Assembly (NCBI RefSeq): GCF_000237865.1
Contig: NC_017457.1
Location: 60,001-92,000 of the forward strand
Length of the DNA: 32,000 nucleotides
From: Haloquadratum walsbyi C23
GTDB lineage: Archaea > Halobacteriota > Halobacteria > Halobacteriales > Haloferacaceae
Direction: 5' to 3'
Positions 4,097-26,143 of the stretch are shown in pieces. The notes below the pieces were generated by a model. That model was not told the origin of the DNA and did not search any database. It saw nothing but the letters and a program-made list of their open reading frames with translations. A program made the position numbers and the translations under genes. Position 1 is the first letter of the stretch. Every line of letters starts with the position of its first letter.

Positions 4097-4359
4097 CTAC
4101 GGCAATTCAGATTTTATCATAATAAAATGTCGTTTCAATTTCCTCGCTCACTGTGTTTTCGACAGACACAATTATATATTATATCTTATACATCAATAAT
4201 TAATTCAGAGTTTCTTGGAGATACTATCTTGAGTGGTTCATGATTGCATTCAATATCTCAGACACAACTGAGTTGGTTAATATAGATGGGTGTCATTAGT
4301 CTTCTACCAAGTGTAAGTGCAATTTACTCGATAAGATTACTATCGACTGCATTCAGACG

Positions 4360-4425
4360 ATGTATTGAATTTTATTTTGCCTTATGTAACAGTCTGGCTC
4401 CGATCTATTCTGATGTTACATAAGG
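4360..4425 (+). repeat. copy 1 of the ~65-bp element: ATGTATTGAATTTTATTTTG, then CCTTATGTAACA, 22 nt, TGTTACATAAGG
   Basis: Perfect 12-bp inverted repeat with arms at 4380-4391 and 4414-4425 and a 22-nt spacer. It is preceded by a conserved AT-rich box. Intergenic. Confidence 0.9.
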
Positions 4426-5098
4426 GACTAATTGATAGATGTGACCACACCATAATTTAAAGATGGATATATCCAATCTAAGATAATAACAAAAGAAACA
4501 CCACTTGATGTAGCGAATCTCTATGATCAAGAGACGCACGGTGCAGACCACGCTATGCTACGAGACTATTCTCCTGCGTCAGCCCTGATGGCAGTATCGG
4601 AGAGCTGCAGGAGCGGACGACGAAACATCAGACGAGGCTCCTTCACGAGTGGGACGTATCCACAATGCCTGTGGCTATCGTCCAAGGTCGGCGTCCACGC
4701 CAGTATCATGACCACATTCACTAACTTGGGCAGGCAAAAGTTCTTGCCGATATCGACTAGACTGCGGTTGGTTCGTTAGTTGGTCGAAAGCTGATCAAGA
4801 AACCCCATATCGTGGCTACTGTAGCTAATGCTCTGCCTGATGACATCTGAATCCACACGGATTGTGCGCACGGGTATCCAATCTGCGTAGCCAACCAGAG
4901 CTGATGTCGCATCTCTCAACTGGTGATAGTAACGGGACTACACAACAGGCGGAACACGGCGGTAAAAAGCCCATGTGCATCTTAAGCGTCGGCAACAGCT
5001 TACGGAATTGTCGGTCGCTGATAATCAACGTCGTTTCCCGATATAGAGTAGCGACACTTATTCACAGCAACACTCAAAGATCTTGTACATAGTCGCTG

Positions 5099-5642
5099 AT
5101 GCTTGAGATAGTGAACATAGTCGGGTCGGGGGATATAGACCAGCGGTTAGATCTCCTCTCAGTATATACGGATGTTGAGCCACCACTAGCAAAGTACGAC
5201 CCCGAGATGTGCCACGGGATGTATCTGTTCGGTGACAACGAAGAGTCACCCTTAGTTACAATTTACACATCTGGAAAATACATAATTGTCGGTGCGGAAA
5301 GTGTAGACGAGCTTGAGGGGACAAGACAGGAAATGTTGCAAACGCTGTCTGAGTCTGATGAAATGAACGATATAGGAGACGCTCAAGTTGAAATAAGTAA
5401 TATTGTTGCGTCTTGAGATGTAGCTATGGAGCTTGACTTAGATCGAGTTTCTATCGAACTCGGGCTTGAAAATACTGAGTGCGACCCGAGAAATTTCCCC
5501 AGGGGTAGTCTACGATGATAGCAAGAACAACTGTACTGTGCTGATATTTAGAACAGGAAAGGTGACTATCACAGGTACAACTTCCCTCGTCGATATAGAA
5601 AACGCATATGAGCAGTTTTTGGAATTGCCTCCACAGCACTAA
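5099..5642 (+). pseudogene. TATA-box binding protein paralogue, disrupted (in-frame TGA plus 1-nt frameshift)
   Basis: The first TBP repeat is intact (MLEIVNIVGSGDIDQRLDL...TSGKYIIVGAESVDE...EISNIVAS). TGA follows at 5414-5416. The second repeat continues as DVAMELDLDRVSIELGLENTECDPRNFP. After an extra base near 5500-5501, the shifted frame reads GVVYDDSKNNCTVLIFRTGKVTITGTTSLVDIENAYEQFLELPPQH, ending at TAA 5640-5642. Confidence 0.8.
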
Positions 5643-5683
5643 TACTGTTCACAGAATTTCAGAGAGCTGGTCGGTTCAAGTAG

Positions 5684-6235
5684 TCAGACTTCACGAAGTC
5701 TATCTATCTCCTCCTGAATCTGCTGGAGAGCAGACTTTGCTTCCTCACATTCTGTCGTGCCTCCAATGATTGCCTTGTCGGTTGAAAAAATAAAAAGAGT
5801 TACTGCAAACTCTGGCGGTCGATACACAATCGCTGGGAACTGCTCTGGTTCATATTCAGTTTTCTCCAGTCCCAGAGCAATTGTCAAAGCTTCCAGATTT
5901 ACATCAACCTCTAACGTGCCGACGAAGACAGAAGTCACGTGACGAAACTCATACTCAGGCATCTTAACGCCAGCATCGGAAAGAAGCGTTCGTAACTGAG
6001 ACTCGGATTCTTCGAGATCGGCTTCAGTCTTCGCACCTCGAATCTGGAACGAGCCCATGCGGACAGGATTAATACAGGACTATCGTCCCCGCAATATATC
6101 CCCTCCTAGTCAAGTTAGTATCAATTGGAGTTTCGGCATTCTCAACCAAATCACCAACCAACAGACGAAGATCTAACCCTCACTCCAGCGACCTAATCCC
6201 ATCGCACTCGCAATCTCAAAGATACCTATTGGTGG
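5684..6235 (-). pseudogene. TATA-box binding protein paralogue, N-terminal repeat decayed by frameshifts and stops
   Basis: The 124-aa ORF (5684-6058) holds the end of repeat 1 and all of repeat 2 (GSFQIRGAKT..., LGLEKTEYEPEQFPAIVYRPPEFAVTLFIFSTDKAIIGG). Hand translation upstream on the minus strand gives broken TBP-like pieces in other frames: FEIASAMGLG from about 6220, then LDLRLLVGDLVENAE. The upper boundary is approximate. Confidence 0.65.
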
Positions 6236-6303
6236 CTCATCAGTTGATCTGGTTCTTCTGTTCGGTTACTGTTAATTCATCATAGACTACTTCAGGGGCG
6301 GAC

Positions 6304-7821
6304 ATGATTGTCTCAAACATGTCCGTGTCCTTGGACGAACTCGATTCACAACTCTTCAAATGTGCTGATATCATCCGTGATGCGGTTGATTCCACCGATT
6401 ATAAGGAGTATATCCTCCCGCTGGTCTACTATAAGGCTATCTCTGATGAGTTTGCGAAGCAGTATCAGAAGAATGTCACCGAGTACGGTGAGGAGTTTGC
6501 CCGCCGTGAGAATCTCTATGATGTTCCTGTCATCCCAGACGGATATATGTGGGATGACGTTCGAGCGGTCAGCGATAACGTGGATGAGGCACTCAACGAG
6601 AGTTTCGACGCACTCGTTGAGGCAAACCCCGAATTGAGAGGTGTTTTCCGAGCCGATTACATTGACGCCGATGCTCTCGGTGATGACCGTCTTGGACGCC
6701 TCGTAGAACATCTCTCGAAGTACGACTTAGACACGGATAGCGTTCCACCAGATATGCTCGGTGAGGCGTATATGGACTTGGTTCGCCACTTCGCAGAGGA
6801 GGAGGGCAAGTCTGGCGGGCAGTTCTTCACGCCACCACAGATTGTCAACCTCTGCGTTCGACTCGTTGATGAATTTGAGGATGGGCACACATTCCACGAT
6901 CCCACCGTTGGCTCAGGTGGAATGCTTATCGAAGCCGCTCGGTACTATCGTGAAGAGCAGAACGGCGACCCACAGAAATTCGAACTGACGGGGCAGGAAA
7001 TCAACCCTGATATCGCCGCTATCGCTAAAATGAACCTCTCCATTCACGGACTCAACGGGGAGATTGAACGAGAGGACTCACTCGCTTACCCGCAGTTTAC
7101 CGATGAGACAGATGACTCAGTTGCCCGCTTCAATAGAGTTCTCGCCAACTTTCCATTCTCCGCAGACTGGGCGAAAGACGAGCTTCAAGATGACCCCTAC
7201 GACCGTTTCGACTGGCACGAGAAACTCCCACGGGCAGATCGTGGTGACTACGCCTTCATTATGCACATCGCAAAGCAACTGAAGACACCTGAGCAGGATG
7301 GCGAGGGTGGGAAAGCGTCGATTGTGATTCCGCACGGCGTTCTCTTCCGCAAGCACGAGCAACGGTATCGTAAGCCAATGCTGGAGAACGATATGGTGGA
7401 AGCAATTGTTGGACTTCCCGAGAACCTTTTCCAGAACAACTCAATTCCATCTGCTGTGCTTGTGCTGAACACCGACAAACCAGAAGAACGAGAGGGGGAA
7501 GTACAATTCATCCACGCCGCAGATGAGGACTTCTACGACGAACTTTCCAATCAGAATCAGCTCACACATGAAGGGCTTGACCATATCATCGAAAACTTCC
7601 GAGGCTGGACAACCGAAGAGCGAGTGAGTCGAACGGTCGGAATGGATGAGATTCGAGAAAACGATTATAATCTAAATATCGCCCTGTACGTCGATACGAC
7701 CGAACCTGAGGAAGATATTGATGTTGAGGAGGAGCTGGCGAAGTTACGGGACTTACAGGCAGAACGAGACGATATTGAATCTCAAATGACTCAGCATATG
7801 GAGGCTCTGAAATATGAGTGA
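6304..7821 (+). CDS. hsdM: type I restriction-modification system, methyltransferase subunit
   Basis: 505 aa with an HsdM N-terminal region (LFKCADIIRDAVDSTDYKEYILPLVYYKAISDEF), SAM motif I (HDPTVGSGGMLIEA) and an NPPF-type motif IV variant (LANFPFS). An ATGAGTGA start/stop overlap links it to the next gene. Confidence 0.93.
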   Translation: MIVSNMSVSLDELDSQLFKCADIIRDAVDSTDYKEYILPLVYYKAISDEFAKQYQKNVTEYGEEFARRENLYDVPVIPDGYMWDDVRAVSDNVDEALNESFDALVEANPELRGVFRADYIDADALGDDRLGRLVEHLSKYDLDTDSVPPDMLGEAYMDLVRHFAEEEGKSGGQFFTPPQIVNLCVRLVDEFEDGHTFHDPTVGSGGMLIEAARYYREEQNGDPQKFELTGQEINPDIAAIAKMNLSIHGLNGEIEREDSLAYPQFTDETDDSVARFNRVLANFPFSADWAKDELQDDPYDRFDWHEKLPRADRGDYAFIMHIAKQLKTPEQDGEGGKASIVIPHGVLFRKHEQRYRKPMLENDMVEAIVGLPENLFQNNSIPSAVLVLNTDKPEEREGEVQFIHAADEDFYDELSNQNQLTHEGLDHIIENFRGWTTEERVSRTVGMDEIRENDYNLNIALYVDTTEPEEDIDVEEELAKLRDLQAERDDIESQMTQHMEALKYE

Positions 7822-9088
7822 CGACGCCGCACTGGACGAGTTTGGTGTAGGCTCAGAGGGTTCAAACAAGTCGGATACGGCTGTAAAAAGCAAGCAGAAA
7901 ACTGATGATTTACAAGCGCTGGAAGCATCACCAATTGAAGACTGGGAGTTGCTAAGGTTGGGTGATGTTCTGTCATTTGAGTATGGAGATAATCTGCCTG
8001 CGGATACACGAGAAGATGGTGAGATCCCTGTATACGGGTCTAACGGACAAGTAGATACCCACACAGAGGCAAATGTTGATACAGCAGGGATTATCATCGG
8101 GAGAAAGGGTTCTATCGGCAAAGGAGAATTCAGTATTAATCCGTTCTGGGCGATAGACACAACATATTATATAAGTGACAATGAAACAAGCGAAAATCTA
8201 CGATTCGTATATTACTTGTTACAGAATATGAAGCTTGAGAGGCTAAACGCCGCCTCAGCTATCCCTGGTCTAAATCGTAATGATGCTTATAATTTAAATA
8301 CGCTTATTCCACCGCTTTCAGAACAGCAGAAGATTGCTACCGTCCTCCGCACCGTTGACCAAGCGATTCAGAAGACTGAGGAGATCATAGAGCAAACTCG
8401 ACGAGCAAAAACAGGTATACAGCAAGAGTTGTTTACGCAAGGATACTATGACCACAGGTTTTTTGTGGAGACAAGAGTTGGCGAGTTACCAGAATCGTGG
8501 CGGTTAGAAAAAATAAAAAACCATACTGAACTTGTCTCTGGTGCTCACGTGAAATCGGAGTTAGTCTCTGATGATAGTTCTCTCACGCCGTATCTTACTG
8601 GGCCTGAAGACTTCGATGAACTTGGGTTTACAATGACCAAGTATACCGATGAGCCAACAAAATTCTGTAAAGAAGGAGACACACTTGTCACTGTCAAGGG
8701 TTCTGGGTGTGGAAAATCTACGTTCGCAGACCGACGTGCCTGTATTAGCAGACAACTCAAAGCACTACGACCGAATGGTAAACTGGAAGAACTCTACTTA
8801 TTTTACTTTGTTGAGACCAAGCAGAAACTTTTGAAAAGCCTTGCAGAGGGTTCTGCGATTCCAGGGTTGTCCAACTCCCATCTAACGGCTTTGGATATTC
8901 CGATTCCAAGTATAGAGGAGCAACGCAAAGTGGGTGAGGTCTTGAAAAAATACGACGACAGGATTGTCTATGAAAAAAAGTATAAGTCTCAACTCCAGCG
9001 TCTCAAACACGGTTTGATGCAAGACCTCCTCTCAGGCGACGTCCGAACAGCCGACGTTGATATAGAGATTCCACAGGAGGTCGCATAG
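7814..9088 (+). CDS. hsdS: type I R-M specificity subunit (first of two)
   Basis: 424 aa with two variable target-recognition regions separated by conserved helices (PPLSEQQKIATVLRTVDQAIQKTEEIIEQT and IPSIEEQRKVGEVLKKYDDRI...QLQRLKHGLMQDLLSG), the standard HsdS architecture. Confidence 0.9.
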   Translation: MSDDAALDEFGVGSEGSNKSDTAVKSKQKTDDLQALEASPIEDWELLRLGDVLSFEYGDNLPADTREDGEIPVYGSNGQVDTHTEANVDTAGIIIGRKGSIGKGEFSINPFWAIDTTYYISDNETSENLRFVYYLLQNMKLERLNAASAIPGLNRNDAYNLNTLIPPLSEQQKIATVLRTVDQAIQKTEEIIEQTRRAKTGIQQELFTQGYYDHRFFVETRVGELPESWRLEKIKNHTELVSGAHVKSELVSDDSSLTPYLTGPEDFDELGFTMTKYTDEPTKFCKEGDTLVTVKGSGCGKSTFADRRACISRQLKALRPNGKLEELYLFYFVETKQKLLKSLAEGSAIPGLSNSHLTALDIPIPSIEEQRKVGEVLKKYDDRIVYEKKYKSQLQRLKHGLMQDLLSGDVRTADVDIEIPQEVA

Positions 9089-9089
9089 T

Positions 9090-9362
9090 ATGGGTAGTGT
9101 CATATCTAAAGGCTGGGTCAATCATCTCACTATGAAGTGTTGGGAATGGACTGTAGTAGAGCGGGTAAGTCGGACAGTCAGGATGGAAGAGATCCGCGAA
9201 AACGACTACAATCTGAATATCGATTTATACGTCGATACGACCAAACCAGAGGAAGATATTGACGTACAGGAGGAACTGGCGGAACTACGCGAGTTGCAGG
9301 CAGAACGAGACGAGATTGAAGCGAAGATGACCCAGCATATGGAGGCTCTGAATTATGAGTGA
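9090..9362 (+). pseudogene. remnant of the 3' end of a second hsdM gene
   Basis: The last 71 aa of this 90-aa ORF (WTVVERVSRTVRMEEIRENDYNLNIDLYVDTTKPEEDIDV...MTQHMEALNYE) match the last 71 aa of HsdM (WTTEERVSRTVGMDEIRENDYNLNIALYVDTTEPEEDIDV...MTQHMEALKYE). By my hand count, 58 of 71 residues are identical. It carries no methyltransferase motifs. It ends in the same ATGAGTGA overlap with the following hsdS. Confidence 0.8.
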
Positions 9363-10710
9363 GGACATTACGCTGGATAAGTTCACAGAGGCTACCGCCT
9401 CTCAAGAGCGACAGGAGACACCAATAGGTGAGCTCCCAGTTGACTGGGACGTAGAGTGGTTGAAAGACGCAGTTGGGATTAATCCTGATGGTTTCTCTGA
9501 GGATGACTGGTCATCAGAGACATTTGAGTATATCTCGCTCTCAGAGGCATCTAATGGCGAAATAGAAAACAGTAAGACAATTCCTATCACGGACGCTCCA
9601 AGTCGGGCACAAAGAACAGTTCAGCAGGGTGATGTACTTGTGGGGACTGTCCGTCCAAAACAGAAAAGCCACGGGTTTGTCAGTGAGGAACACGCTGGGA
9701 AAATCTGTTCTTCTGGCTTTGGTGTCTTGCGAACTGAAACCCATTTTAACTCCCGCTATCTTCTTCAAGAAATCCTCTCAAACCGATTTTTTTCCCAGAT
9801 GGAGGCATATGTTGCAGGTTCAGGCTACCCTGCTGTCAAAATCAGTGACCTGAAGAAGCATCGAATTTCCATCCCACCTCTTGTGGAACAGAGGAAAATC
9901 GCAACCGTCCTCCACACCATCGACCAAGCGATTCAGAAGACCGAGGAAATTATCCAGGGGCTCCAAACGGCTCGTAAAGGACTTACTCAACAGTTATTGC
10001 GTTCTGGTTTTGAGGACGAAGCCAATTTAGTAAGCACCCGTTCTGGTCCTATCTCATTTGAGATCCCTTCTCATTGGAATGTTGTGACGATTGATAATAT
10101 TACTGACAATATATATCGGTATCCAACCTATCAAAATATTGATTACGTAGATGAAGGTGTTCCAGAGGTGAGAATTGGTATGTTAGACGGGGAGGGTTAT
10201 ATCGAACGAGGTGATGAAAAGTACATCTCTGAATCAACCTCAGAAGAATATCCCCGTACACAACTTGAACACGGTGATACGGTGATGGCTGTAAGGGGCG
10301 CTACGTTAGGAAAGACCGCCTCTGTTCCAGAGTGGTTAGATGGGGGCAATATTAATCCGAACCTAATTCGTATTTGCTCAAATGATGAGGTCTTAGATAG
10401 GTATCTCACGGAACTTTTCCTGAGTGGTCTGGTTCAAAGGCAAATAGAAGCTTTCTCTCAGCAAACAACGGTGAAAACAATCAAATCTGGAGACATTCGT
10501 AGAATTGCCGCCCCTATTCCGCCTGTAACTGAGCAAGAAAGAATAATGGATATACTATCTTCGTTTTCATCTCGTATTCAAAACGACGATTCGTATCTTT
10601 CCCGTCTCCAGCGTCTCAAGAGCGGTCTAATGCAAGACCTTCTCTCAGGTAAAGTCCGAACAACTAATACTAACATAGAAATTCCAGAAGAAGTCATCAC
10701 ATATGGTTAG
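9355..10710 (+). CDS. hsdS: type I R-M specificity subunit (second, different target-recognition domains)
   Basis: 451 aa. The conserved spacer helices are shared with the first HsdS (PPLVEQRKIATVLHTIDQAIQKTEEIIQG; RLQRLKSGLMQDLLSGKVRT), but both variable regions are unrelated to it. The stop overlaps the hsdR start. Confidence 0.9.
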   Translation: MSEDITLDKFTEATASQERQETPIGELPVDWDVEWLKDAVGINPDGFSEDDWSSETFEYISLSEASNGEIENSKTIPITDAPSRAQRTVQQGDVLVGTVRPKQKSHGFVSEEHAGKICSSGFGVLRTETHFNSRYLLQEILSNRFFSQMEAYVAGSGYPAVKISDLKKHRISIPPLVEQRKIATVLHTIDQAIQKTEEIIQGLQTARKGLTQQLLRSGFEDEANLVSTRSGPISFEIPSHWNVVTIDNITDNIYRYPTYQNIDYVDEGVPEVRIGMLDGEGYIERGDEKYISESTSEEYPRTQLEHGDTVMAVRGATLGKTASVPEWLDGGNINPNLIRICSNDEVLDRYLTELFLSGLVQRQIEAFSQQTTVKTIKSGDIRRIAAPIPPVTEQERIMDILSSFSSRIQNDDSYLSRLQRLKSGLMQDLLSGKVRTTNTNIEIPEEVITYG

Positions 10711-13675
10711 TATCCCATCCGAGCAGGGCGTTGAACGCTCGTATCTCTCGTGGCTTGACGGGTTAGGATGGGAAGTCCACGGACAAGATGGAAGTCGAGG
10801 AGCGAATGTCCTTGATGTAGAGTACGAACGTCGAAGCAATGAGGTTATTTACTGGAATTTACTGGCTGAACAGCTCATCGTGATCAATGACTCCCTCACA
10901 GAGGATAATGTCGAGAAGTTCGTTTCCTCGCTCAGACGTGATCTTGACGCTGAGAACTTGATGGACGGGAATGAAGCGTTCTATGAGTTACTGACCAAGG
11001 GAAAGACATTCTCAGTCAAGCAGAATGGGAGTGCCAGCAGGACGGTCTATATTGACCTGATTGACTACGAGAACCCAGAGAACAATCGCTTCCACGCTGT
11101 TAATCAGTTCTCTGTCTCCCGTGAAACGACGATCCGTCCCGACGTGAACCTCCTTGTCAACGGGATTCCGCTGGTGACGATGGAACTCAAGAGTGTCGCA
11201 CAGGACAACGACTGGCACAACGCTGTGAGCGACCTCCAAGCGTACGAAGATGATGTACCTCGACTGTTCGTCCCGACGCTATTCAACGTCGCCGCCGATA
11301 CGATGGAGTTCCGATACGGGGCAGTCGGAGCGTCCAAGGAGTTCTATGAGCCGTGGAATGATGCTCCCGAGCAGTACACAGATGACGGCGACGCAAAGCA
11401 GGCGATACAGGCACTCTGTAACCCGCAGACGATTCTCGATATTCTCAAGAACTTCGTGTTTTACGAGCGACGAGCAGGTGGGAATGCCAAAATTATTCCA
11501 CGGCATATGCAGTACTACGCTGTCAATCGGATGCTGGAGCGGGTTGACCGAGACGAACACGACCGAGGGCTCATCTGGCACACCCAAGGATCGGGCAAGT
11601 CATTCACGATGCTGTATGCGGCAGAGAATCTACTAGAGCGGGCTGTTGCTCGTAACCCGCAGGTGTTCATCATCGTCGATACGGACAAGCTGAATAGTCA
11701 AATGCGAGACCAACTGGCGAATCTCTCGCTGGGAGCGTGGACGGAAGCAGAGAGCATCGACCATCTACAGGAACTTATCGAACAGGGTCAGAGCGAGCTC
11801 ATTCTTACGACCATCCAGAAGTTCCAAGATGTTGACCCAGACAGTCAGGGGAACGACGAAGTCATCGTGATGTCCGATGAGGCTCACCGATTTATGGAAG
11901 CTGACCTTGGGAGTCGATTGGATGCCGCACTGCCAAGCTGCACTCACTTCGGCTTTACTGGTACGCCTGTCCGTGAGGGTGAACAGCACAAAGACCGCAA
12001 CACCTTCCGTGAGTTTTCACCAGAGGGCGAAGATTATATCCACCGCTATTCGGTCAAACAGGGGATTGACGACGAGCTGATTCTCCCTGTGTACTTCACG
12101 CTCCGCCACGAGATGGAGTGGCAGATTGATGAGTCGGGGCTTGATGAAGAGTTTGAACGGCAGTTCCGCGGACTGAGTTCGGATGAGAAGCGGGAACTCA
12201 TCCGTGACAACGTAACTGCGAGGATGTTGGCGGAGATTGAGCCACGAGTACAGAAAGCGGTTGAAGAAATCGACCAGCATTATGAGGAGTCTGTTTCTCC
12301 GAACAACTGGAAGGGAATGGTTGTCACCCCAAGCCGTCGGTCGGCAGCGATGTACGGTGAACGGCTCGTAGAACGGCGAGGTAAAGACGAGGTCGAGGTT
12401 CTATACACCTCGAACAAGGACGACCCAGACCTCATCCAGCAGTTCCATACGGACTCTGAGGAACGTGATTCGATAGTTAACGAGTTCAAAGACGAGGACA
12501 ATCCAAAACTATTGATTGTCCACAATATGCTTCTGACGGGATTTGACGCTCCGATTCTGAAGACGATCTATCTTGACCGTAACCTGAAGAATCATAATCT
12601 GATGCAGGCAATCGCTCGAACGAACCGCCCTGCAAGTGGGAAGGAAAATGGTGAGATTGTCGATTTCCAAGGCGTCTTTGAGAATATCGACGAGGCTCTC
12701 GATTACGATACGGAGACGCAGTCGTACGCCGCTCGTGACAAAGATGAGCTGTTTGACGACCTCGTTGACCAGTTGGAAACGGTGATAGATATTTTCGAGG
12801 GGATTCCGAAAACAGACACGCAGGAAGCCACATCGGACGCAGTTGAGCAAGTGCTGACACACCCGACTCGCCGTGAGTTCAAGCAGGGATTCCGTCGGCT
12901 TCAAGATCTGTATGAGGCGGTCGCACCTGACAGTCGACTCGTCGAGAAGGACATCGAGAGGCGGTACAAGTGGCTGAGTCGGATTCACGTTGCGTTCAGG
13001 CGGACAACTAGCGGTGAAGATGACCCTGAAGAAGATATGCGAGAGAAGACCCGAGAGATAGTCAGTGAAAACGTCGCAATTGACACTGTGAAACGAGACT
13101 TTCCAACGTACAAACTCGGTGAGGACGTCTTAGAAGAAGTGGATGAGATAGATAATCCGTCTGTGAAAGCCTCCCAAATCGCCCACGCAACCCAGGAGCA
13201 TCTCAACCCACGAGAAAACCAGAATCCTCGATATAAGCGACTTAGCGAGCGGGTGACTGATGTTGTTGAGCGATGGCAAGGTGGCGATATAGCCGACCCT
13301 GACGCAGTTGAGGCGTTACAATCAGTCGAAGAGGAGATTCTGGAGGTTGAGGAAGAAGCTGAAGAGCAGGGAATGACCGATAGTGAGTTTGCTATCTACA
13401 CGCACCTTACCGAGGAAACGCCAGAAGCAATTGAGTCAGACGAGCAGGCAGAAGCCGTCGCTAACGAGATTATTGAGCAGTTCTACGACCGTGTTGATCA
13501 CGGGTTTGCTGGGTGGCAAACGAACCAGCAGACGATTGCTGAGATTGAACGCATCTTACTGGACGTGCTTGTGGTGGAGTATGATCTTGGAGACCTGATC
13601 GATGATGAGTTTGTGGACACGGTTCGAGAGTATCTGATACAGAACCACGAAGCGACAGTTGACCACTATGAGTGA
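10703..13675 (+). CDS. hsdR: type I R-M restriction/translocase subunit
   Basis: 990 aa with an N-terminal PD-(D/E)xK nuclease (RPDVNLLVNGIPLVTMELKS), Walker A (HTQGSGKSFTM), a DEAH box (VMSDEAHR) and helicase motif VI (QAIARTNR). Confidence 0.95.
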   Translation: MVSIPSEQGVERSYLSWLDGLGWEVHGQDGSRGANVLDVEYERRSNEVIYWNLLAEQLIVINDSLTEDNVEKFVSSLRRDLDAENLMDGNEAFYELLTKGKTFSVKQNGSASRTVYIDLIDYENPENNRFHAVNQFSVSRETTIRPDVNLLVNGIPLVTMELKSVAQDNDWHNAVSDLQAYEDDVPRLFVPTLFNVAADTMEFRYGAVGASKEFYEPWNDAPEQYTDDGDAKQAIQALCNPQTILDILKNFVFYERRAGGNAKIIPRHMQYYAVNRMLERVDRDEHDRGLIWHTQGSGKSFTMLYAAENLLERAVARNPQVFIIVDTDKLNSQMRDQLANLSLGAWTEAESIDHLQELIEQGQSELILTTIQKFQDVDPDSQGNDEVIVMSDEAHRFMEADLGSRLDAALPSCTHFGFTGTPVREGEQHKDRNTFREFSPEGEDYIHRYSVKQGIDDELILPVYFTLRHEMEWQIDESGLDEEFERQFRGLSSDEKRELIRDNVTARMLAEIEPRVQKAVEEIDQHYEESVSPNNWKGMVVTPSRRSAAMYGERLVERRGKDEVEVLYTSNKDDPDLIQQFHTDSEERDSIVNEFKDEDNPKLLIVHNMLLTGFDAPILKTIYLDRNLKNHNLMQAIARTNRPASGKENGEIVDFQGVFENIDEALDYDTETQSYAARDKDELFDDLVDQLETVIDIFEGIPKTDTQEATSDAVEQVLTHPTRREFKQGFRRLQDLYEAVAPDSRLVEKDIERRYKWLSRIHVAFRRTTSGEDDPEEDMREKTREIVSENVAIDTVKRDFPTYKLGEDVLEEVDEIDNPSVKASQIAHATQEHLNPRENQNPRYKRLSERVTDVVERWQGGDIADPDAVEALQSVEEEILEVEEEAEEQGMTDSEFAIYTHLTEETPEAIESDEQAEAVANEIIEQFYDRVDHGFAGWQTNQQTIAEIERILLDVLVVEYDLGDLIDDEFVDTVREYLIQNHEATVDHYE

Positions 13676-14390
13676 GGTACGATTACACGAGCTAGAATTG
13701 CTGGGTGAGAGCGTCGAGTACGAACTACGGCGGAGTGCAGAGGCGTCAGAGCCACGGATTGACGTCGATATTCACGGGGTGAGGGTAGTCGTCCCAGAGA
13801 CTGCTGATTTTCAGCCAACAGAGCTACTGAAACAGAATGCATCGTGGGTGCTGGAGAAACAGCGAGTGTATCAGAAGTATCGTGAGGAAGCCCCTGAGCG
13901 GACGTTTGAGGCTGGCGAGAGATTTCCGTTCCTCGGAGAAGAACACAAGTTGGTGGTTGAATCTCGGCAGTCTCACGCTGTGTCAGACCGGACGATTCAT
14001 CTGCGAGAGAGCGCTGTCGCACAGTCGTCACTCAAACAAGCACTACGGAATTTCTACCGAAGTCGGGCACGCAAACACTTCGTTGATCGTGCCGACCAGT
14101 ATGCTTCTCAGATGGGTGTTGAGTATAAGCAGATTGAGATTCGGAATCAGCGGACAAGGTGGGGGAGTTGTTCAACGTCAGGAACACTCGGACTCAACTG
14201 GCGGTTGATGATGGCTTCGCCTAACGTTATCGACTACATCCTTGTCCACGAGTTAGCACATCTCCGTGAGCCGAATCACACGCAAGCGTTCTGGGATTTT
14301 GTCGCAGAGTACGATCCTGACTACGTGGAACACGCCGAATGGCTTGAGGAAAACAGTACGCAACTCATCTTTTCTCAAGCCGACCTATGA
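13668..14390 (+). CDS. DUF45/YgjP-like zinc metallopeptidase (HExxH)
   Basis: RNQRTRWGSCSTSGTLGLNWRLMMASPNVIDYILVHELAHLREPNHTQAFWDFV is the DUF45 signature with an HELAH zinc motif. The track starts at a TTG (13659). I prefer ATG 13668, which forms an ATGAGTGA overlap with the hsdR stop. Confidence 0.85.
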   Translation: MSEVRLHELELLGESVEYELRRSAEASEPRIDVDIHGVRVVVPETADFQPTELLKQNASWVLEKQRVYQKYREEAPERTFEAGERFPFLGEEHKLVVESRQSHAVSDRTIHLRESAVAQSSLKQALRNFYRSRARKHFVDRADQYASQMGVEYKQIEIRNQRTRWGSCSTSGTLGLNWRLMMASPNVIDYILVHELAHLREPNHTQAFWDFVAEYDPDYVEHAEWLEENSTQLIFSQADL

Positions 14391-14939
14391 AACTGCAAGT
14401 TGCTCTATTTCCGCCGTTATATCCTTGATAGACGACGAGATCTGGTTGAGGTCAGTAAGCCCAGTGCAGACAACCTTCCCGCTGGCGAAAATCAGGAGGA
14501 CAGCATCTTGACCACGGTAAATTAGAGCAGGAAATTGCTCGGGTTCGTACTCGGCTTGCTCCAGTCCGAGTCCGATAGCAATTGCTTCTAACGACAGAGT
14601 CGAATCAACTTCTGCTGTTGCGACGATGTTCTTGATTTCGGCAGTAGGTTCGTATTCAAAGTTCAGTAACTCACGCATCAGCGTATTCACCCGCCTGACC
14701 ACCTCCTCGAAATGTGCTGGTGATGTCGCTCCCACAATCGAGCATTTGCCACTTCGGTAAAACGGCACGTAGGTGTCATCGGGGGCAAAGCGAGCTTGCA
14801 ACCAGTGGTTTTCAGATGGTTCGTAGGTGACAGAATTGACTTCGGATCGTTGTTCAAAGGTCTCAGCCAACGCCGATAACTCAAGCTCCTGCTGGTAGGT
14901 CAACATCCCAACGACGTTCGCAATCTCAAACTCTGCCAC
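14385..14939 (-). CDS. tbp: TATA-box binding protein paralogue (intact, two repeats)
   Basis: 184 aa. Repeat 1 reads FEIANVVGML...YRSGKCSIVGATS. Repeat 2 reads IKNIVATAEVDSTLSLEAIAIGLGLEQAEYEPEQFPALIYRGQDAVLLIFASGKVVCTG. It is convergent with the DUF45 gene, with a 6-nt 3' overlap. Confidence 0.9.
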   Translation of the reverse strand: MAEFEIANVVGMLTYQQELELSALAETFEQRSEVNSVTYEPSENHWLQARFAPDDTYVPFYRSGKCSIVGATSPAHFEEVVRRVNTLMRELLNFEYEPTAEIKNIVATAEVDSTLSLEAIAIGLGLEQAEYEPEQFPALIYRGQDAVLLIFASGKVVCTGLTDLNQISSSIKDITAEIEQLAVS

Positions 14940-15122
14940 TATAGAGTATTTCCCAGGTGAGAGTAAAAAGCCACGAGTTCCGAGCGGACTACTCTGTGAC
15001 TGATTGGAGTCTCACCAGTGCTGTTCTCTACGCTAAGTATTATATTGACTCTGCCAGAATAACTACAAGATTACTCAAGCACAGATTATCTTGGATGCCG
15101 ATCCGCACTCTGTTTTCCCTGC

Positions 15123-16199
15123 TCAAATATCATCATTTTCTCTGATAGAGATTTCGACACCACAGGCTTCTGCCATCCGCCCCAGTTCACGTTGTTTCTG
15201 ATCCCAGCTTAAGTTGACTTCAAGATAGTATTCCTGTTCTAGTTCACGTGCTTGCTTCATCTCCTTGTCGTTGTATGTTGGTTCGTCATTGACGATAGCA
15301 CGATTCTTCGCAGGGATGTATGGGAGTGGCTCAATCGCAGAGATAAGGTCGTGATTTTGGATGAGGTAGTTCACTATCGACGCCATCAGGTCGCTCTGGA
15401 CAGAATCTGTAAAGGTCTCAGCGACATCACCACTCTGAGAGATTTCGCCAGAATATGGCTGTGTTATCCTGTCCTCAGAGTCAGTTGATGAATCTTCATT
15501 ATCCAATCGACGTGGAGTGTCCGTATCAATCTCGGACTCGATATCGTTGACGAGCCTGTCAATCATCTCTTTCGCTTGCGTTTGTGCTTCCGATTCGATA
15601 GCGTCAGAAACGGTGTCAGTGAGCAAATCCACAACCGCTGTGGCTAATTCTTCTTTGTCATCTGTCAGCGTATCCCGAGATTTTCGTAACTTCCTGATGT
15701 GTTCGATAATCGCTATTGATTCTTCATTGTGTATCGTGCTAACTTGATACGCCTCAATGATACCCTTCTTGTCTGGAAGTTTCCGAAGTGTCGTCCGTTC
15801 AACCGCCTCGACTTTGAATTGTGAATCACTGTCACCGAGATATCGGTAGTAGAACTCATACTCCTGTCCGTTGGTGAGAATACCCAATCTGACATTCTCA
15901 CTCTGGAGATATGCACTCAGTTGCTCTCGATGCTTGGAGGTGAGCGTTTTACCCAGTCCCTTTGCTTCGAGAAATGCCACGGGTTGTCCGCCGAGTATAA
16001 GAGCATAATCGACTTTGAATGTTTTACTGAATGCCTTCACCGAGTACTCTAGTTCGGTGTTAGCTGGGATCTCCCAGCCAAGAAGTTCGATGAAATCGTT
16101 TAGTATAGACGCTTTCGTAGTTGCTTCCTGCATCTGCGGTGAATCCTCGATGATGGGTTGAGCAGACTCAACGTAGTCCCGAATCGATGCTGTGTCCAT
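15123..16199 (-). CDS. orphan HsdR_N/Mrr-like PD-(D/E)xK domain protein with acidic coiled middle and unknown C-terminal domain
   Basis: ILNDFIELLGWEIPANTELEYSV...FKVDYALILGGQPVAFLEAKGLGKTL...REQLSAYLQSENVRLGILTNGQEYEFYY matches the N-terminal nuclease-like domain of type I HsdR (D...EAK core, then the TNG..Y.F strand). It has no helicase motifs. The track starts at 16271; I prefer the internal ATG at 16199 (MDTASIRDY). Confidence 0.7.
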   Translation of the reverse strand: MDTASIRDYVESAQPIIEDSPQMQEATTKASILNDFIELLGWEIPANTELEYSVKAFSKTFKVDYALILGGQPVAFLEAKGLGKTLTSKHREQLSAYLQSENVRLGILTNGQEYEFYYRYLGDSDSQFKVEAVERTTLRKLPDKKGIIEAYQVSTIHNEESIAIIEHIRKLRKSRDTLTDDKEELATAVVDLLTDTVSDAIESEAQTQAKEMIDRLVNDIESEIDTDTPRRLDNEDSSTDSEDRITQPYSGEISQSGDVAETFTDSVQSDLMASIVNYLIQNHDLISAIEPLPYIPAKNRAIVNDEPTYNDKEMKQARELEQEYYLEVNLSWDQKQRELGRMAEACGVEISIRENDDI

Positions 16200-16501
16200 T
16201 CTTACAAGTGATCTTCTCTCGTGTGATTCAAAGAAATGTGGGCAAAGACTCAGTAACCCTCCATTCGTCATTGGTCTCCTTGTCTGTAGTTACTCGTACT
16301 GACGCTCTTACTTCGTCTACGTGGGCGGTAGCTCACTCGCAGAACCTGTTTATTTCGCCCTGAGGTGATGTCAGTTCAGGGCGGAGGACTAGTTACCAAT
16401 GGGCTTCCACGGTGGTGGTATCACTTCGGTGATTCTTAAAATGATGATAAATATCGTCGACTCTTCTTGTAGATGAAAAAATCCTAATACAGACAAGAAT
16501 T

Positions 16502-16567
16502 ATGTATTAAATTTTATTCTACCTTATGTAACAATCTGATTCTGATATACTCTAATGTTACATAAGG
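16502..16567 (+). repeat. copy 2 of the ~65-bp element: ATGTATTAAATTTTATTCTA, then CCTTATGTAACA, 22 nt, TGTTACATAAGG
   Basis: Perfect 12-bp arms at 16522-16533 and 16556-16567 with a 22-nt spacer. It has the same orientation and the same upstream AT-rich box as copy 1. Confidence 0.9.
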
Positions 16568-17027
16568 CACAGCCGGTCGGTCTCGCAGAAACAGTGGTCT
16601 TCATAACGAGCGTGTTCCAACAAGACATCTATTCGACGGTTGCCAAGATTGTGATGCCACAGTCACAAACCAGACAGTTGACCCAAAGGGATCGAATCTG
16701 AATCAAAGCTCCTTCTGTGAAATAATGCAAGCGATGCTGGACTGATTAGCAGGCTTCAAGGAGGAGATTATGCTTGGTATTGGGACAGGTGATGCTCGTG
16801 GTGCGTATGAGAGCTAAAAAACGAACCGTGATTCGGATGATTGAGACTGACGAACTGGGGGAAATCGACACAGATATATCAGCGCTCAGCAGATACTCAT
16901 TCAGTCCTGTCTTGTTGAGGCTCCCAATTACAACAAAAGGGGCTGGTCCGAGGGTTTTCAGTATTCGCCCTCGAACAACTTCAATTCTCAATAGTGATAA
17001 CCACATCAATTTTTTGTCATTGACAAT

Positions 17028-17228
17028 ATGGTGATGAATATGGACTTACCTGTCAAATACGGCACAGCCGCTATTATTAGGGTGCTTGCCATACTCGGCG
17101 TGGCGATGTTTGATGATGTCGGTATCCCTCTTGATCCTGAATTGCTTATTGTAACCATCGGTGTCATTCCACTGTATATTTTATATCGGATCGGTCGCTG
17201 GGTAGTGGGTCTTATACAATCACCATGA
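17028..17228 (+). CDS. small predicted membrane protein (two hydrophobic helices)
   Basis: 66 aa. AAIIRVLAILGVAMF and LLIVTIGVIPLYILY are hydrophobic stretches separated by an acidic loop. The antisense 93-aa ORF looks less protein-like. The start is uncertain (ATGs at 17028, 17034, 17040). Confidence 0.45.
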   Translation: MVMNMDLPVKYGTAAIIRVLAILGVAMFDDVGIPLDPELLIVTIGVIPLYILYRIGRWVVGLIQSP

Positions 17229-17644
17229 GTGATAATCACATCTGCACAGGCGACGTCTCTGATTTTCTTATTCTTATTAACTGTCACGATCCCGGTTTAC
17301 ATCTCGAAAACGGGGTGTTCAATCTGATATGTCTATTATGGAAATAAAATAATAAACGCAGTCATGCGATTATTTATCAACTGAGTGACTACTGTCCTGA
17401 CACAACTAACTCACTGTAACTGTGTGCGTACGATCTTTGCTATGTATCCAGCGTATGATATTTTTTATCGAGATAGTATCAGTAAAGATGCCAATGTTCT
17501 CAGATCGGTATCTGCTGTTCTAATCAACTGCAGACAGACAGCGAAAGCGACAGCACTCGTAGTTTTTTATTCTCCCGACTAAATTTCAATTTGATACTTA
17601 CAACCGCTAGAAATATTCTTGTCTCTGTGTCAGAACAGGAGCGT

Positions 17645-17984: not shown

Positions 17985-18458
17985 TTAATTGGGGATAATC
18001 ATCAGAGTAGTGAGTTTAATAAATTTCCACAGTTCAATCGGGGCACTATCGGGACTGCCTGAGCTTGCACCACCACTTCCGTCGATTATAAGCGAGAATC
18101 CAATCAAAAGGATTACACTAACGACAATTCCAAACACTGCAAACCCAATAGCATTAGCGGTACTACTATTGATACACCGTTGTCCAATACCGTAAGAGCC
18201 CCTTCCTGCAGTTGCATATCTAACAAAGGCTGCAATTAGTGGACCACTGAGCACTGCAAATGAGAGGATTATAATCGAAATAACGCCAGTAATTATTCCA
18301 CCGGATATGCCCTCCCCTCCGGCAAATTGTAATAGGAGGATGATGGCAAGAAGTCCAAACCCGACACCGATAACGAAATAAAATTGAATAGTTCGGATAA
18401 TCAGTGGAATGTCGATGCCAAGAGCATCGCCTCCTCTAAATTCGGTTTTAAAAGGCAT
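17985..18458 (-). CDS. multi-pass membrane protein, Gly-rich
   Basis: It has several long hydrophobic segments (FYFVIGVGFGLLAIILLLQF, GGIITGVISIIILSFAVLSGPLIAAF, AIGFAVFGIVVSVILLIGFSLII). The track start is 18521; the internal ATG at 18458 (MPFKTEF) is an alternative. It lies in tandem with the upstream minus-strand gene. Confidence 0.6.
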   Translation of the reverse strand: MPFKTEFRGGDALGIDIPLIIRTIQFYFVIGVGFGLLAIILLLQFAGGEGISGGIITGVISIIILSFAVLSGPLIAAFVRYATAGRGSYGIGQRCINSSTANAIGFAVFGIVVSVILLIGFSLIIDGSGGASSGSPDSAPIELWKFIKLTTLMIIPN

Positions 18459-18566
18459 ACCGAGTGATCTTATGTAAAATATTGTCTTGTTGAACCCCGG
18501 CTTTGTTACATAAGATAACATCGCTGAGAGAACGCTGCTAGTGTTGTATTTGCGTTTCTGGCGGGG

Positions 18567-20527: not shown

Positions 20528-20566
20528 AATTGGCAATGAGATGCCAACTATATCATTTCCACGAGA
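20528..20566 (+). repeat. direct repeat, left copy (AATTGGCAATGAGATGCCAACTATATCATTTCCACGAGA)
   Basis: It matches 21602-21641 with one indel and one substitution. It lies about 55 nt upstream of the lipoprotein start codon. Confidence 0.9.
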
Positions 20567-20585
20567 CTGATACTCAGTGCATATG

Positions 20586-20620: not shown

Positions 20621-21520
20621 ATGCCTTCACGTCGTAACCTGCTGAAGATTGGAGCATCAACGTGTACTGCAACAATTATTGCTGGATGTTTTGGTGGTGA
20701 TAGTGACTCTGAAGACACCAGTACAAATGTCCCTGAAGAAACGCCATCAGAGGAGGAGACACCAACAGAGACAGACACTCCTGAGGATGTTTCTTTATTT
20801 GCTGACTACGGGATCAATGAAACTGGCTTCACTGTGGAACTCACACAAAGTGCTTTGGGAGAGGTAGCACAGATTCAGCTTGAGACACCATCTGAGGAGA
20901 GAATAATTGAAATACAAGAAACTATCACAGAGTATACATTTGAAATAGTATCTGACAGAGCAGGTGTTTGGTCACTCACCGCTCTCACCAGCAATGATGA
21001 TGCTGTTGAAACAGTAGAAGTAGAGATTACATTTGAAGCATCCGTAGAGGAGATTGGAACCTTAGCTCAGCTTGGAATTACAGGAGAATCTCCCGAGTAC
21101 GAGCAAGTGCACATGCAAATGACGATTATAAATGATGGCGATGTTCCTCTCGAACCAGACCAAGACAAGATTGAGTTAGTCGTACCAGGTCTTAATATCG
21201 ACGTACCCACTTTTGATGCAGATACCTCATTCAGCGCAGAGGATGAGGACGATATTATCACATCTGGAAATGATGGTATATATACAACCGCCACTGACTC
21301 ACTGATCAGAGCACCATTTACTTTAGAAACGTATAATCTTCCAGATGGGGTCGACCGGGATGACCCCGTAGGTGAGTCATTTCAGGGTCAAATTAAGATT
21401 GTTTATGAGGCAGAAAGAGAGGACACTACGGTTCCAATAGATGTTATTATGGGTGATAATGTGATGGAATTTAATTCTACATCTGTATATTATGAAGGGA
21501 CAGAGGTAAAGAAAAGATAA
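20621..21520 (+). CDS. secreted Tat-type lipoprotein, acidic, function unknown
   Basis: The N-terminus MPSRRNLLKIGASTCTATIIAGCFGG carries a twin-arginine motif (SRRNLLK), a hydrophobic core and a lipobox cysteine (AGC). A Thr/Glu/Pro-rich linker follows, then an acidic body. Confidence 0.8.
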   Translation: MPSRRNLLKIGASTCTATIIAGCFGGDSDSEDTSTNVPEETPSEEETPTETDTPEDVSLFADYGINETGFTVELTQSALGEVAQIQLETPSEERIIEIQETITEYTFEIVSDRAGVWSLTALTSNDDAVETVEVEITFEASVEEIGTLAQLGITGESPEYEQVHMQMTIINDGDVPLEPDQDKIELVVPGLNIDVPTFDADTSFSAEDEDDIITSGNDGIYTTATDSLIRAPFTLETYNLPDGVDRDDPVGESFQGQIKIVYEAEREDTTVPIDVIMGDNVMEFNSTSVYYEGTEVKKR

Positions 21521-21601: not shown

Positions 21602-21641
21602 AATTGGCAGATGAAATGCCAACTATATCATTTCCACGAGA
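21602..21641 (+). repeat. direct repeat, right copy (AATTGGCAGATGAAATGCCAACTATATCATTTCCACGAGA)
   Basis: See the left copy. It lies 81 nt downstream of the lipoprotein stop codon. Confidence 0.9.
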
Positions 21642-21943
21642 TAGATTAACGATCCATGTTAACGGTGATTCGACAGATTGGCGATATGTGAACAGTATGG
21701 AGTAACCCGCTGGAAGGGCGGTCTTAGCACAACTGCCGGGGATTGTGTGTAGAGAAAATACAAAGCCTGTTTTCGCACATCGGACGGTTGTTTGAATATG
21801 CAATTTTCAGAGATTGCCCCGTCACATCTCGTCATATCCCATCACGTTGACCCTGTGTTTAGAAACGATATTGAATACTGAACCGTTGAGTTACCTCACA
21901 GATACGGTAATCTCGGCACCATGTGCAAAAATTGAGACCAAAT

Positions 21944-23420: not shown

Positions 23421-23483
23421 ATGTAATTTTGTTTTTACCTTATGTAACAATCTGCTTTCACCCCGTTCAATTATTACATAAGG
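23421..23483 (+). repeat. copy 3 of the ~65-bp element: ATGTAATTTTGTTTTTA, then CCTTATGTAACA, 22 nt, TATTACATAAGG
   Basis: Arms at 23438-23449 and 23472-23483 pair at 11 of 12 positions, with a 22-nt spacer. Same orientation as copies 1 and 2. Confidence 0.85.
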
Positions 23484-23840: not shown

Positions 23841-24373
23841 ATGATCAAGAAAGAATCCTCAACTCCAAACGGCAAATTATCGCCAGCTGATATCCAACCC
23901 AGCACTAACCTCCCCGATGTCGACCTCTCCGGCATTGATCTTGTCAGCACTGACTTCACGGATATTAATTTCTACGGTGCTGATCTCTCTGATACCAGTC
24001 TCGTGGATGCTAACCTCTCTGCGACCGACCTTTCAAACGCCAGCTTCGATGGTGCCGACCTCTCAGACGTTGACCTTTCAGGTGCCGAACTCTCCGGCGT
24101 GAATCTCACGAGTGCAGATCTTACCGAGGCTGACCTCACTGACGCCAACCTTAGAGAAGCCGAACTCACCGCCGCTGACCTCACGCATATCACTCTTACA
24201 CGTGCCAATCTCTCCTATGCCAAACTCGATAGAGCCAATCTCCGATACGCCTCTCATGGGCTCAGGTAAATAGTGCTGATATCACGGACGCCTGTCTCAT
24301 TGAAGCCGATTTCTGCCACGCTGACCTCTCTTACACCGATCTTGGAAGAACCGATGTTCGGAGCACAAAATGA
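23841..24373 (+). pseudogene. pentapeptide-repeat protein, apparently frameshifted near 24250-24262
   Basis: The 142-aa ORF is a continuous A(D/N)LXX pentapeptide array (ADLSDTSLVDANLSATDLSNASFDGADLSDVDLSGAELSGVNLTSADLTEADLTDANLREAELTAADL...). After its stop, another frame continues the same repeat (AQVNSADITDACLIEADFCHADLSYTDLGRTDVRSTK) to TGA at 24371-24373. Confidence 0.7.
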
Positions 24374-26127: not shown

Positions 26128-26143
26128 ACCACTGTGTGAACTG

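Follow-up and report, generated by a model that had tools for sequence, protein, structure and literature searches.

The 32,000-nt stretch of DNA analysed here (hereafter the window) comprises positions 60,001-92,000 of the forward strand of NC_017457.1 from Haloquadratum walsbyi C23 (GCF_000237865.1), and it contains three intact copies of a short element built of an A+T-rich box and two 12-bp inverted arms separated by a 22-nt spacer (copies 1-3; Table 1). The window is haloarchaeal in character with a G+C content of 0.40-0.56, and its genes include two N6/N4 methylases with a PadR regulator, a type I restriction-modification (R-M) locus with a YgjP peptidase, an HSDR_N/PD-(D/E)XK protein, a pentapeptide-repeat protein, an orc1/cdc6 gene preceded by an origin-like inverted repeat, and a DrmD-like SNF2 helicase; overall it looks like a defence or plasmid-type island. 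Copies 1 and 2 form the left and right boundaries of a 12.1-kb island that holds the R-M locus, and copy 3 sits 1.4 kb past the 3' end of orc1. Our subject is the function of these copies and their relation to the protein family DUF6788, whose genes adjoin the same palindrome at loci in both Bacteria and Archaea.

The arms (CCTTATGTAACA on the left, TGTTACATAAGG on the right) were complementary at 12/12 positions in copies 1 and 2 and at 11/12 in copy 3, and a listing of open reading frames (ORFs) placed all three copies between genes, as an initial sequence-only reading of the window had reported; the common orientation and positions given there were likewise borne out by direct reading of the + strand. 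That reading had also described the 22-nt spacer as invariant, which holds for the three copies and not beyond the window, where spacer lengths were concentrated at 22-25 nt over the 237 sites among the matches listed. Its statement that only the first 5 nt of the spacer are conserved proved wrong, since the spacers of copies 1 and 2 agree at 15/22 positions; that of copy 3 agrees with either of them at 10/22. All three copies carry, upstream of the left arm, the A+T-rich box (ATGTATTGAATTTTATTTTG and variants), which nhmmer found restricted to copies 1-3 and their direct orthologs in contigs L211, L216 and L138. Allowing up to two mismatches, the 12-mer arm occurred nine times in the window against 1.98 expected, a count reached in 0 of 100 shuffles, perfect 11-nt inverted repeats with a 15-30 nt gap numbered six against 0.06 in 100 Markov shuffles, and an independent repeat search of the window recovered the copies as one family. 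A chance origin of this repeat family is excluded.

Two arms previously taken to be solitary turned out to belong to full palindromes. The supposed solo right arm at 18504 is part of a degenerate palindrome without a box and with a 24-nt spacer (copy 4), with the end of its left arm 9 nt before an ATG that is internal to ORF 17985-18521 on the minus strand. The supposed solo left arm at 24681 belongs to a decayed palindrome with a 22-nt spacer (copy 5) lying about 165 nt past the orc1 stop codon, and the ortholog of this copy in metagenome contig L216 is better preserved (CTTACGTAACA-N22-TAATACATAAG).

A pattern search across genomes, haloarchaea included, had been proposed at the outset, and it revealed a family that spans both domains. 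We scanned one genome per prokaryotic species, metagenomes and IMG/VR with the pattern CTTATGTAAYA-N(10-40)-TRTTACATAAG and recovered 101 loci in genomes and at least 120 in metagenomes, with no match in the IMG/VR viral contigs. The core CTTATGTAACA-N(22-25)-TGTTACATAAG, whose two arms are exact in copies 1 and 2 and carry one mismatch in copy 3, turns up in haloarchaea, methanogens, Acidobacteria, Bacteroidota and others, at more than 220 public loci in all. Of the genome matches, about half were haloarchaeal (Halosimplex, Halococcus, Halovenus, Halocatena, Halorubrum, Haladaptatus and Haloquadratum J07HQW1 and J07HQW2), the others including Acidobacteria, Chloroflexota, Cyanobacteria and methanogens. 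Among the matches listed (237 sites in 221 loci, to which the gene-adjacency counts also refer), the spacer between the 11-nt arms was 22 nt at 53 sites, 23 nt at 58, 24 nt at 39 and 25 nt at 27, a modal range that includes the 22 nt of copies 1-3.

Clustering of the ORFs that flank the palindrome brought one family to the fore, of about 112 aa, which matched Pfam DUF6788 (PF20586, E 1e-8). An ORF of this family was adjacent to the palindrome and read away from it at 48 of the 237 sites, and lay within 3 kb in 66 of the 221 loci; roughly three quarters of the sites were orphans, that is, without an adjoining DUF6788 gene. The association was also seen from the protein side. In a reverse test of 16 unique DUF6788 loci picked by protein similarity alone, with no selection for the motif, 14 had, directly upstream of the gene or its operon, an inverted repeat spaced by 16-28 nt, and seven of these 14 had canonical arms, including loci on one plasmid from Bacteroidota (TCTTATGTAACT-N22-AGTTACATAAGA) and one from Methanothermobacter.

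The position of the arms relative to the gene was similarly regular. At haloarchaeal DUF6788 loci the ATG followed the proximal arm by 2-8 nt, and some 30 nt ahead of that ATG the spacers held CCTTATGTA or CTTTATGG, both TATA-like, as leaderless transcripts would lead one to expect. When 21 bacterial modules were aligned, the conserved block started about 12 nt outside the distal arm and ended at the stop codon, with unrelated flanks on either side, and the -35 hexamer TTGACA was conserved inside the spacer. The arms thus appear to bracket the predicted core promoter of DUF6788 in both domains, which is the classical arrangement of an autorepressor. Bacterial modules (L128, L121, L227 and 18 others) have a second, outer inverted repeat, with GAGTCCGATAAT just outside the distal arm and its partner TTATCGGAC about 40 nt after the proximal arm; in one module the partner directly abuts the proximal arm. 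Genes neighbouring the bacterial DUF6788 modules are of defence type (TIR-like, SIR2, PNP_UDP, MORC-like ATPases and a methylase).

Divergent haloarchaeal paralogs of DUF6788 (33-50% identity) carried non-canonical arms at the same place, altered identically in both arms: CTTGTGCAACA in Halalkalicoccus, CTTATCAAACA in Natrialba pNMAG03, CTTACCTAACA in Halorhabdus, CTTACCAAACA in Haladaptatus, CTTACCAACA in Halococcus dombrowskii and CCTAAACAACA in Halogeometricum. On three of these replicons the local variant recurred at a second place, 71 nt upstream of the parA operon on pNMAG03, about 325 nt upstream of orc1 on the Haladaptatus plasmid, and just past the DUF6788 stop codon on the Halococcus dombrowskii plasmid. 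Since a variant is shared within one replicon, each replicon would have its own pair of protein and site, with several sites per replicon. This co-variation of arm and protein is, in our view, the strongest argument that DUF6788 would be the binder and that its sites would form a regulon.

Genes next to the orphan sites also recurred, namely Orc1/Cdc6 (25 loci), a protein with an ArdC-N domain (about 11), ParA (10), DUF6573 and winged-helix regulators. At eight ardC-like loci the arms were 100% conserved in otherwise unalignable intergenic DNA, around spacers of 22-24 nt, which argues for constraint on the arm sequence and not only on its pairing. The DUF6788 gene lay between two sites 386-442 bp apart in at least 11 loci. 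The non-halophile contig L106 carried the order site-DUF6788-site-DUF6573-site-DUF6573, with the sites 23-68 nt before the next ATG, and given this promoter-distance spacing the downstream site is best read as the operator of the next unit.

To judge from an alignment of 34 homologs, DUF6788 consists of an N-terminal region with an invariant LPxYxxxGxxKQ, a variable acidic linker, and a C-terminal block with CGD-x4-C ... HGPYxYRY. In the AlphaFold2 model, which is confident (predicted local distance difference test score 81), a pair of N-terminal helices is followed by a long acidic linker and then by a C-terminal sheet bearing a CCCH zinc knuckle and the GPYxYRY strand. A dimer joined at its N-termini, with two DNA-binding heads on flexible linkers, would fit the long half-sites and the 22-25-nt spacers of the palindrome. 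PADLOC and NCBIfam held no match to DUF6788, PHROGs only one family, of unknown function; literature searches found no paper mentioning DUF6788 or PF20586, and no archaeal or otherwise relevant paper for the arm sequence.

Based on these comparisons, we think it probable that the window copies are operator sites of a DUF6788-type repressor encoded outside the window. They are orphan sites, because the window has no DUF6788 gene. A protein-binding or operator role had been among the options raised by the sequence-only reading, and it is the one favoured by the two-way association with DUF6788, the bracketing of predicted promoters and the co-variation of arm and protein. Such an operator would consist of two 11-12-bp inverted half-sites about two helical turns apart, their sequence recognised by a small dimeric zinc-ribbon protein. 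At the home position the arms would clamp the core promoter of the DUF6788 gene, so that the bound protein would shut off its own promoter, and the further sites before or beside parA, orc1, ardC-like and DUF6573 genes would make up a small regulon of mobile replicons and defence islands. In the window, a DUF6788 protein from elsewhere in the genome would occupy the sites in trans. A candidate TATA element is the box sequence TTTTATTTT, which precedes the left arm by 1-2 nt; the left arm would then lie between the TATA element and the transcription start and the right arm just downstream, a geometry that differs from the one at the home position but would be just as repressive. The near-identical dispersed repeats have, in addition, a documented role as recombination junctions, and their use as recombination substrates would account for a 12.1-kb R-M island bounded by copies 1 and 2. 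The defence- or plasmid-like content of the window (R-M genes, methylases, the DrmD-like helicase and orc1) is in keeping with such a regulon.

Several observations weigh against this interpretation. Neither tblastn nor hmmsearch of the six frames found a DUF6788 homolog in the window, and the palindromes of J07HQW1 and J07HQW2 in the scan were also without an adjacent DUF6788 gene. No start codon or ORF start in the ORF listing adjoins an arm of copies 1-3, and at haloarchaeal orphan sites an ORF start within 10 nt was no more frequent than at random positions (5/36). Both the genome and the metagenome scan demanded exact arms, by which the apparent invariance of the arms is inflated, and the mirrored arm changes of the divergent paralogs are also expected of a hairpin or cruciform. 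In the bacterial modules the candidate -10 element CATAAG, in the right arm, is imperfect in that the final T is missing, and a consensus scanner called no sigma-70 promoter in the module scanned. Lastly, DNA binding by DUF6788 is putative; comparison with PDB sequences gave no match, and the fold none below E=1. We considered whether a remnant of a DUF6788 gene lies beside the window copies and rejected this, having found only stop-filled, insignificant matches.

The segment between copies 1 and 2 contains TATA-binding protein (TBP) fragments, hsdM, two hsdS genes, hsdR, a YgjP-like peptidase, a TBP and a 382-aa HSDR_N/PD-(D/E)XK protein, and has a G+C content of 0.484 as against 0.42-0.44 in the flanks, which suggests acquired DNA. 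Metagenome contig L211 (1563 bp) corresponds to positions 4219-4425 of the window (93%) joined to 16502-17426 (96%) through one element, and this single element is chimeric, with a box like that of copy 1 and a spacer and right side like those of copy 2. From this empty junction it follows that the 12.1 kb is an indel bounded by direct repeats, with a crossover in or at the left arm. Further homology breakpoints lay at the outer edge of an arm in comparisons of L053 with L027 (3 nt), of L045 with L051 (1 nt) and of window copy 3 with J07HQW2, and L217 has two copies at a place where there is a single one in L009; between L053 and L027, one difference in length falls in mid-segment and not at a site. 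The ORFs to the right of copy 2 showed few substitutions in a codon-position test.

Within the island, the R-M locus contains an internal tandem duplication in which a C-terminal fragment of hsdM and the second hsdS repeat the preceding segment with 71-81% identity (Table 1), an arrangement that may be one of hsdS shuffling. Three TBP genes or fragments are present, two of them single-repeat and one full length. Elsewhere, tyrosine recombinase genes occur 1-3 kb from DUF6788 on three of the eight haloarchaeal plasmids inspected, and pHBOR05 has three such genes near DUF6788; the family is absent from the recurrent neighbour clusters of the larger locus set.

The breakpoints at arm edges would fit either exchange between dispersed, near-identical operator repeats or a dedicated site-specific mechanism. 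Repeat-mediated deletions are frequent in Haloquadratum, with direct repeats of up to 734 bp and cores of up to 34 kb (Dyall-Smith et al. 2011, PMC3119063), and no dedicated site is needed to explain them. The alternative, which we regard as unlikely, is that the palindrome is a site-specific recombination site of the att or cassette-junction kind, that segments between copies are excised and inserted as modules in the manner of integron cassettes or pdif modules, and that the DUF6788 gene is one such module or encodes a factor recognising the site. The chimeric junction in L211, the composition of the island, the breakpoints at arm edges and the two-for-one difference between L217 and L009 all speak for it, as do the DUF6788 genes flanked by two copies, for which the promoter-distance sites of L106 offer an explanation without recombination. 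A recombination site had also been among the options of the sequence-only reading, and it has some support in the indel with an empty-site contig and the breakpoints at arm edges; a recombinase co-varying with the element, which that reading had proposed to look for, was not found, either as an integrase or recombinase Pfam domain in the tested window ORFs (even at E<=10 for unassigned ORFs) or as a family among the recurrent neighbour clusters listed. We ranked a dedicated mechanism as a minority view because of this lack of a recombinase, because the bacterial modules have single sites, and because the 22-25-bp non-conserved spacer is unlike the cores of tyrosine or small serine recombinase sites. 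The length difference in mid-segment between L053 and L027 likewise runs counter to it.

Integron attC sites have the core-site consensus RYYYAAC/GTTRRRY, from which the ATGTAAC and GTTACAT of the arms differ by one mismatch each. The palindrome shares with attC sites and cassette arrays the inverted cores round a variable centre, same-orientation copies that divide gene segments, an indel bounded by two copies with its crossover in one arm, and AAC...GTT at the inner ends of the arms. It differs in having no IntI or other recombinase nearby, in conserving the sequence of the arms and not just their structure, in its perfect 12-bp stems with neither L boxes nor the extrahelical bases that define attC, in its multi-gene segments of up to 12 kb, and in its position at promoters, and with no integrase in the tested window ORFs we rejected an attC identity. 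A broader version, to which we assign a slightly smaller probability than to the recombination-site reading, would make the palindrome the crossover or synapsis site of an unrecognised module-exchange system of bacterial and archaeal mobile elements, exchanging units that range from the 0.4-kb DUF6788 gene to the 12-kb island, with DUF6788 pairing the sites for a host recombinase or for recombinase-independent exchange.

We give only a slim chance to the possibility that the copies are a lineage-specific short dispersed repeat, either like a short mobile repeat (SMR) or a miniature inverted-repeat transposable element, known as a MITE, or a relic, functionless now, with arms descended from a DUF6788 operator. 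Short mobile repeats, 80-120 bp in length and inverted at their termini, are abundant in the genus (Dyall-Smith et al. 2011, PMC3119063), Haloquadratum-type contigs contain several palindrome subfamilies of 60-110 bp each with its own conserved flanks, two copies in the window are decaying, and the intact copies have no gene start beside them. Against this, copies 1-3 have neither a target-site duplication at their borders nor terminal repeats beyond the palindrome, and their arms remain perfect or nearly so despite spacers down to 45-68% identity; the arm sequence was not found in the supplementary text of PMC3119063. The history of copy 3 is also informative. Its orthologs are 99% (L138) and 91% (L216, with a perfect right arm) identical, and in J07HQW2 it is found in syntenic position beside an orc1 that is 73% identical to that of the window, with arms intact, 15/22 of the spacer shared, and the right flank alignable (z 5-6) where the left flank is not (z 1.3-1.8). 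Because the arms were kept in a syntenic place while the flanks diverged, the conservation of copy 3 argues for purifying selection on the arms and against recent mobile insertion. To the right of copy 3, the pentapeptide-repeat gene has a 347-bp deletion in L216 relative to positions 23928-24274 of the window.

The earlier judgement that the element is not a simple MITE was therefore upheld: the orthologous loci all keep the palindrome, and the only empty-site contig lacks the 12.1 kb and not the 65 bp. An IS200/IS605 (PATE) hairpin was likewise rejected, since TnpB-like ORFs occurred within 2.5-3 kb at only 4/67 genome loci and not in the window, and their position was inconsistent in the pair of J07HQW2 loci measured. 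Like the SMRs, PATEs and MITEs of Haloquadratum (HqIRS; PMC3119063), the element is a short multi-copy intergenic palindrome repeat in the same genus, with repeat-mediated deletions; it is unlike them in having no terminal repeats beyond the palindrome, no target duplication and no consistent linkage to TnpB/IS605, and in the membership of its arms in a family that spans both domains and is tied to one gene.

Several variants of the palindrome were observed in other lineages. Seven Haloquadratum-type contigs carry a subfamily with a conserved spacer (TCTGCCTCTCTCACAAGACAATT and relatives), which pairs internally and extends the hairpin to -25 kcal/mol in L132, more strongly on one strand, and some copies of this subfamily lie inside a 90-110-bp repeat beside runs of the heptamer GGGAGTC. 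Seven loci from one Planctomycetia metagenome-assembled genome and from metagenomes contain a multi-copy element with the same arms that resembles repetitive extragenic palindromes and has a self-complementary 19-nt spacer (TTTCAGTTGACAACTGAAA); a weak ORF match at a distance of 177 nt is all that hints at DUF6788 there. In a Paludibacteraceae group the spacer between the arms is palindromic and 16 nt long.

A nucleic-acid hairpin, whether a small RNA, a 5'-leader stem-loop, a terminator, or a replication or transfer signal in single-stranded DNA, seems to us very improbable. Folding of the 12-bp stem is favourable (-9 to -14 kcal/mol, z -3.4 to -4.7), the arm variants are compensatory, and some relatives extend the stem through the spacer, in part with strand asymmetry (-18.1 vs -11.5 kcal/mol in some extended-stem Haloquadratum-type relatives). 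The window spacers, though, are unstructured 22-nt loops, within a lineage the arms keep one sequence and do not covary, and a -35 hexamer in the bacterial spacer implies a transcript that starts at or after the right arm and cannot form the stem, just as the archaeal ATG 2-8 nt past the arm fits leaderless transcripts that lack the distal arm. The hairpin transcript entertained in the sequence-only reading is therefore disfavoured, and an intrinsic terminator or known RNA family was rejected, the stem being A+T-rich with no T-run after it in copies 1-3 and no Rfam hit overlapping the copies even at E<=1. Also discarded were an archaeal origin recognition box (ORB), because another repeat fills this role upstream of orc1 and the palindromes lie across the gene or kilobases off; binding by Orc1 (ORB) or an involvement of the pentapeptide protein, owing to inconsistent position or too few loci; and an orientation deduced from the TCTG beside one arm, because of contradictory gene sides.

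By analogy, the nearest functional counterparts among known systems would be operators bound by global repressors of plasmids, along with the repeated promoter/operator units found in plasmid leading regions. Examples are the operators of KorA/KorB (IncP plasmids) and omega (Inc18 plasmids), and the CUP repeats in the leading region of IncN plasmids, which are under ArdK/KorA control. The DUF6788 sites resemble them as the inverted-repeat sites of a small plasmid protein, placed at its own promoter and before partition, replication and anti-restriction-type genes of the same replicon, and as repeated promoter/operator units that can double as recombination points. They differ from all three in that the half-sites are 11-12 bp long and 22-25 bp apart and bracket the core promoter, in that binding and repression are deduced, in that the half-site sequence is common to Bacteria and Archaea, and in that DUF6788 is an uncharacterised zinc-ribbon family and not a ribbon-helix-helix, helix-turn-helix or ParB protein. 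As with the C-boxes of R-M controller (C) proteins, the proposed operator is palindromic, sits at the promoter of a small gene under autoregulation and occurs in R-M or defence neighbourhoods; C-boxes, however, comprise two adjacent dimer sites within about 35 bp in place of half-sites 22-25 bp apart, protein fold and motif differ, and DUF6788 is not consistently beside an R-M gene. AspA of the archaeal plasmid pNOB8 is a winged-helix protein with a single 23-bp centromere/operator site from which it spreads. It is comparable as a small DNA-binding protein coded beside parA on archaeal plasmids with a palindrome at the operon promoter (binding by DUF6788 being putative), and unlike it the DUF6788 gene is usually placed divergently to, or apart from, a parA operon with a second gene of its own.

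The remaining features of the window concern its plasmid-like and defence gene content. The structure that adjoins orc1 consists of 55-nt inverted repeats (93% complementary) containing tandem 9-mers TGTGTCAAG, which enclose about 293 bp including a very A+T-rich stretch, and it is probably a replication origin. The neighbouring SNF2 helicase, of 957 aa, matches the DISARM component DrmD (PADLOC E 1.5e-133), so that a DISARM- or BREX-like defence gene adjoins the origin. A 36-nt direct repeat (92% identical) encloses an ORF of 299 aa with a weak, sub-threshold match to a TAT signal (E 0.097). A tRNA scan and an Rfam search of the window found no tRNA and no Rfam match, no transposase was detected by Pfam in the tested window ORFs, and the sole match of the window to PLSDB plasmids was 400 bp of a Halorussus plasmid.

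Table 1. Positions within the window of the palindrome copies, the island between copies 1 and 2, and other features discussed in the text.
Feature	Positions	Strand	Details
Element copy 1	4360-4425	+	A+T-rich box 4360-4379; left arm CCTTATGTAACA 4380-4391; spacer 4392-4413; right arm TGTTACATAAGG 4414-4425
Element copy 2	16502-16567	+	Box 16502-16521; left arm 16522-16533; spacer 16534-16555; right arm 16556-16567
Element copy 3	23421-23483	+	Shorter box; left arm 23438-23449; spacer 23450-23471; right arm TATTACATAAGG 23472-23483
Degenerate copy 4	18468-18515		TCTTATGTAAAA-N24-TGTTACATAAGA; no box
Decayed copy 5	24682-24727		CCTTACGTAACA-N22-TAATAGACAAGA; right arm 7/12
Segment bounded by copies 1 and 2	4426-16501		12.1 kb; absent from related contig L211
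TBP gene or fragment	5099-5416	+	
TBP gene or fragment	5684-6058	-	
R-M locus	6304-13675		Internal tandem duplication
Segment repeated in R-M locus	7606-9106		
hsdM C-terminal fragment	9090-9362		
Second hsdS	9355-10710		
TBP gene or fragment	14385-14939	-	
36-nt direct repeat	20536-20571 / 21611-21646		92% identical
ORF inside direct repeat	20621-21520		299 aa
orc1/cdc6	24892-26097	-	Adjoins origin-like structure
Origin-like structure	26135-26557		Inverted repeats 26154-26208 / 26502-26556
SNF2 helicase	27245-30118	+	957 aa

The palindrome family is newly defined here; an operator of an autoregulatory repressor is an already known type of element. If our interpretation is true, it would provide a first concrete and testable function for DUF6788, together with its DNA site, its specificity variants and its likely targets (parA, orc1, ardC-like and DUF6573 genes), for a family with hundreds of members on haloarchaeal plasmids, on methanogen and cyanobacterial plasmids, and in bacterial defence islands. 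For a regulator it is unusual that an 11-bp half-site stays identical from Acidobacteria and Bacteroidota to Halobacteria, and this points to horizontal movement of protein and site as a pair. For the window, five intergenic palindromes would be explained at once. Operator repeats would also be places where a 12-kb R-M island is gained or lost, which bears on how defence islands are assembled in haloarchaea, and if the module-exchange reading were true, a basis in sequence would be gained for some of the indels at precise positions and 'deletion-coupled insertions' reported in Haloquadratum.

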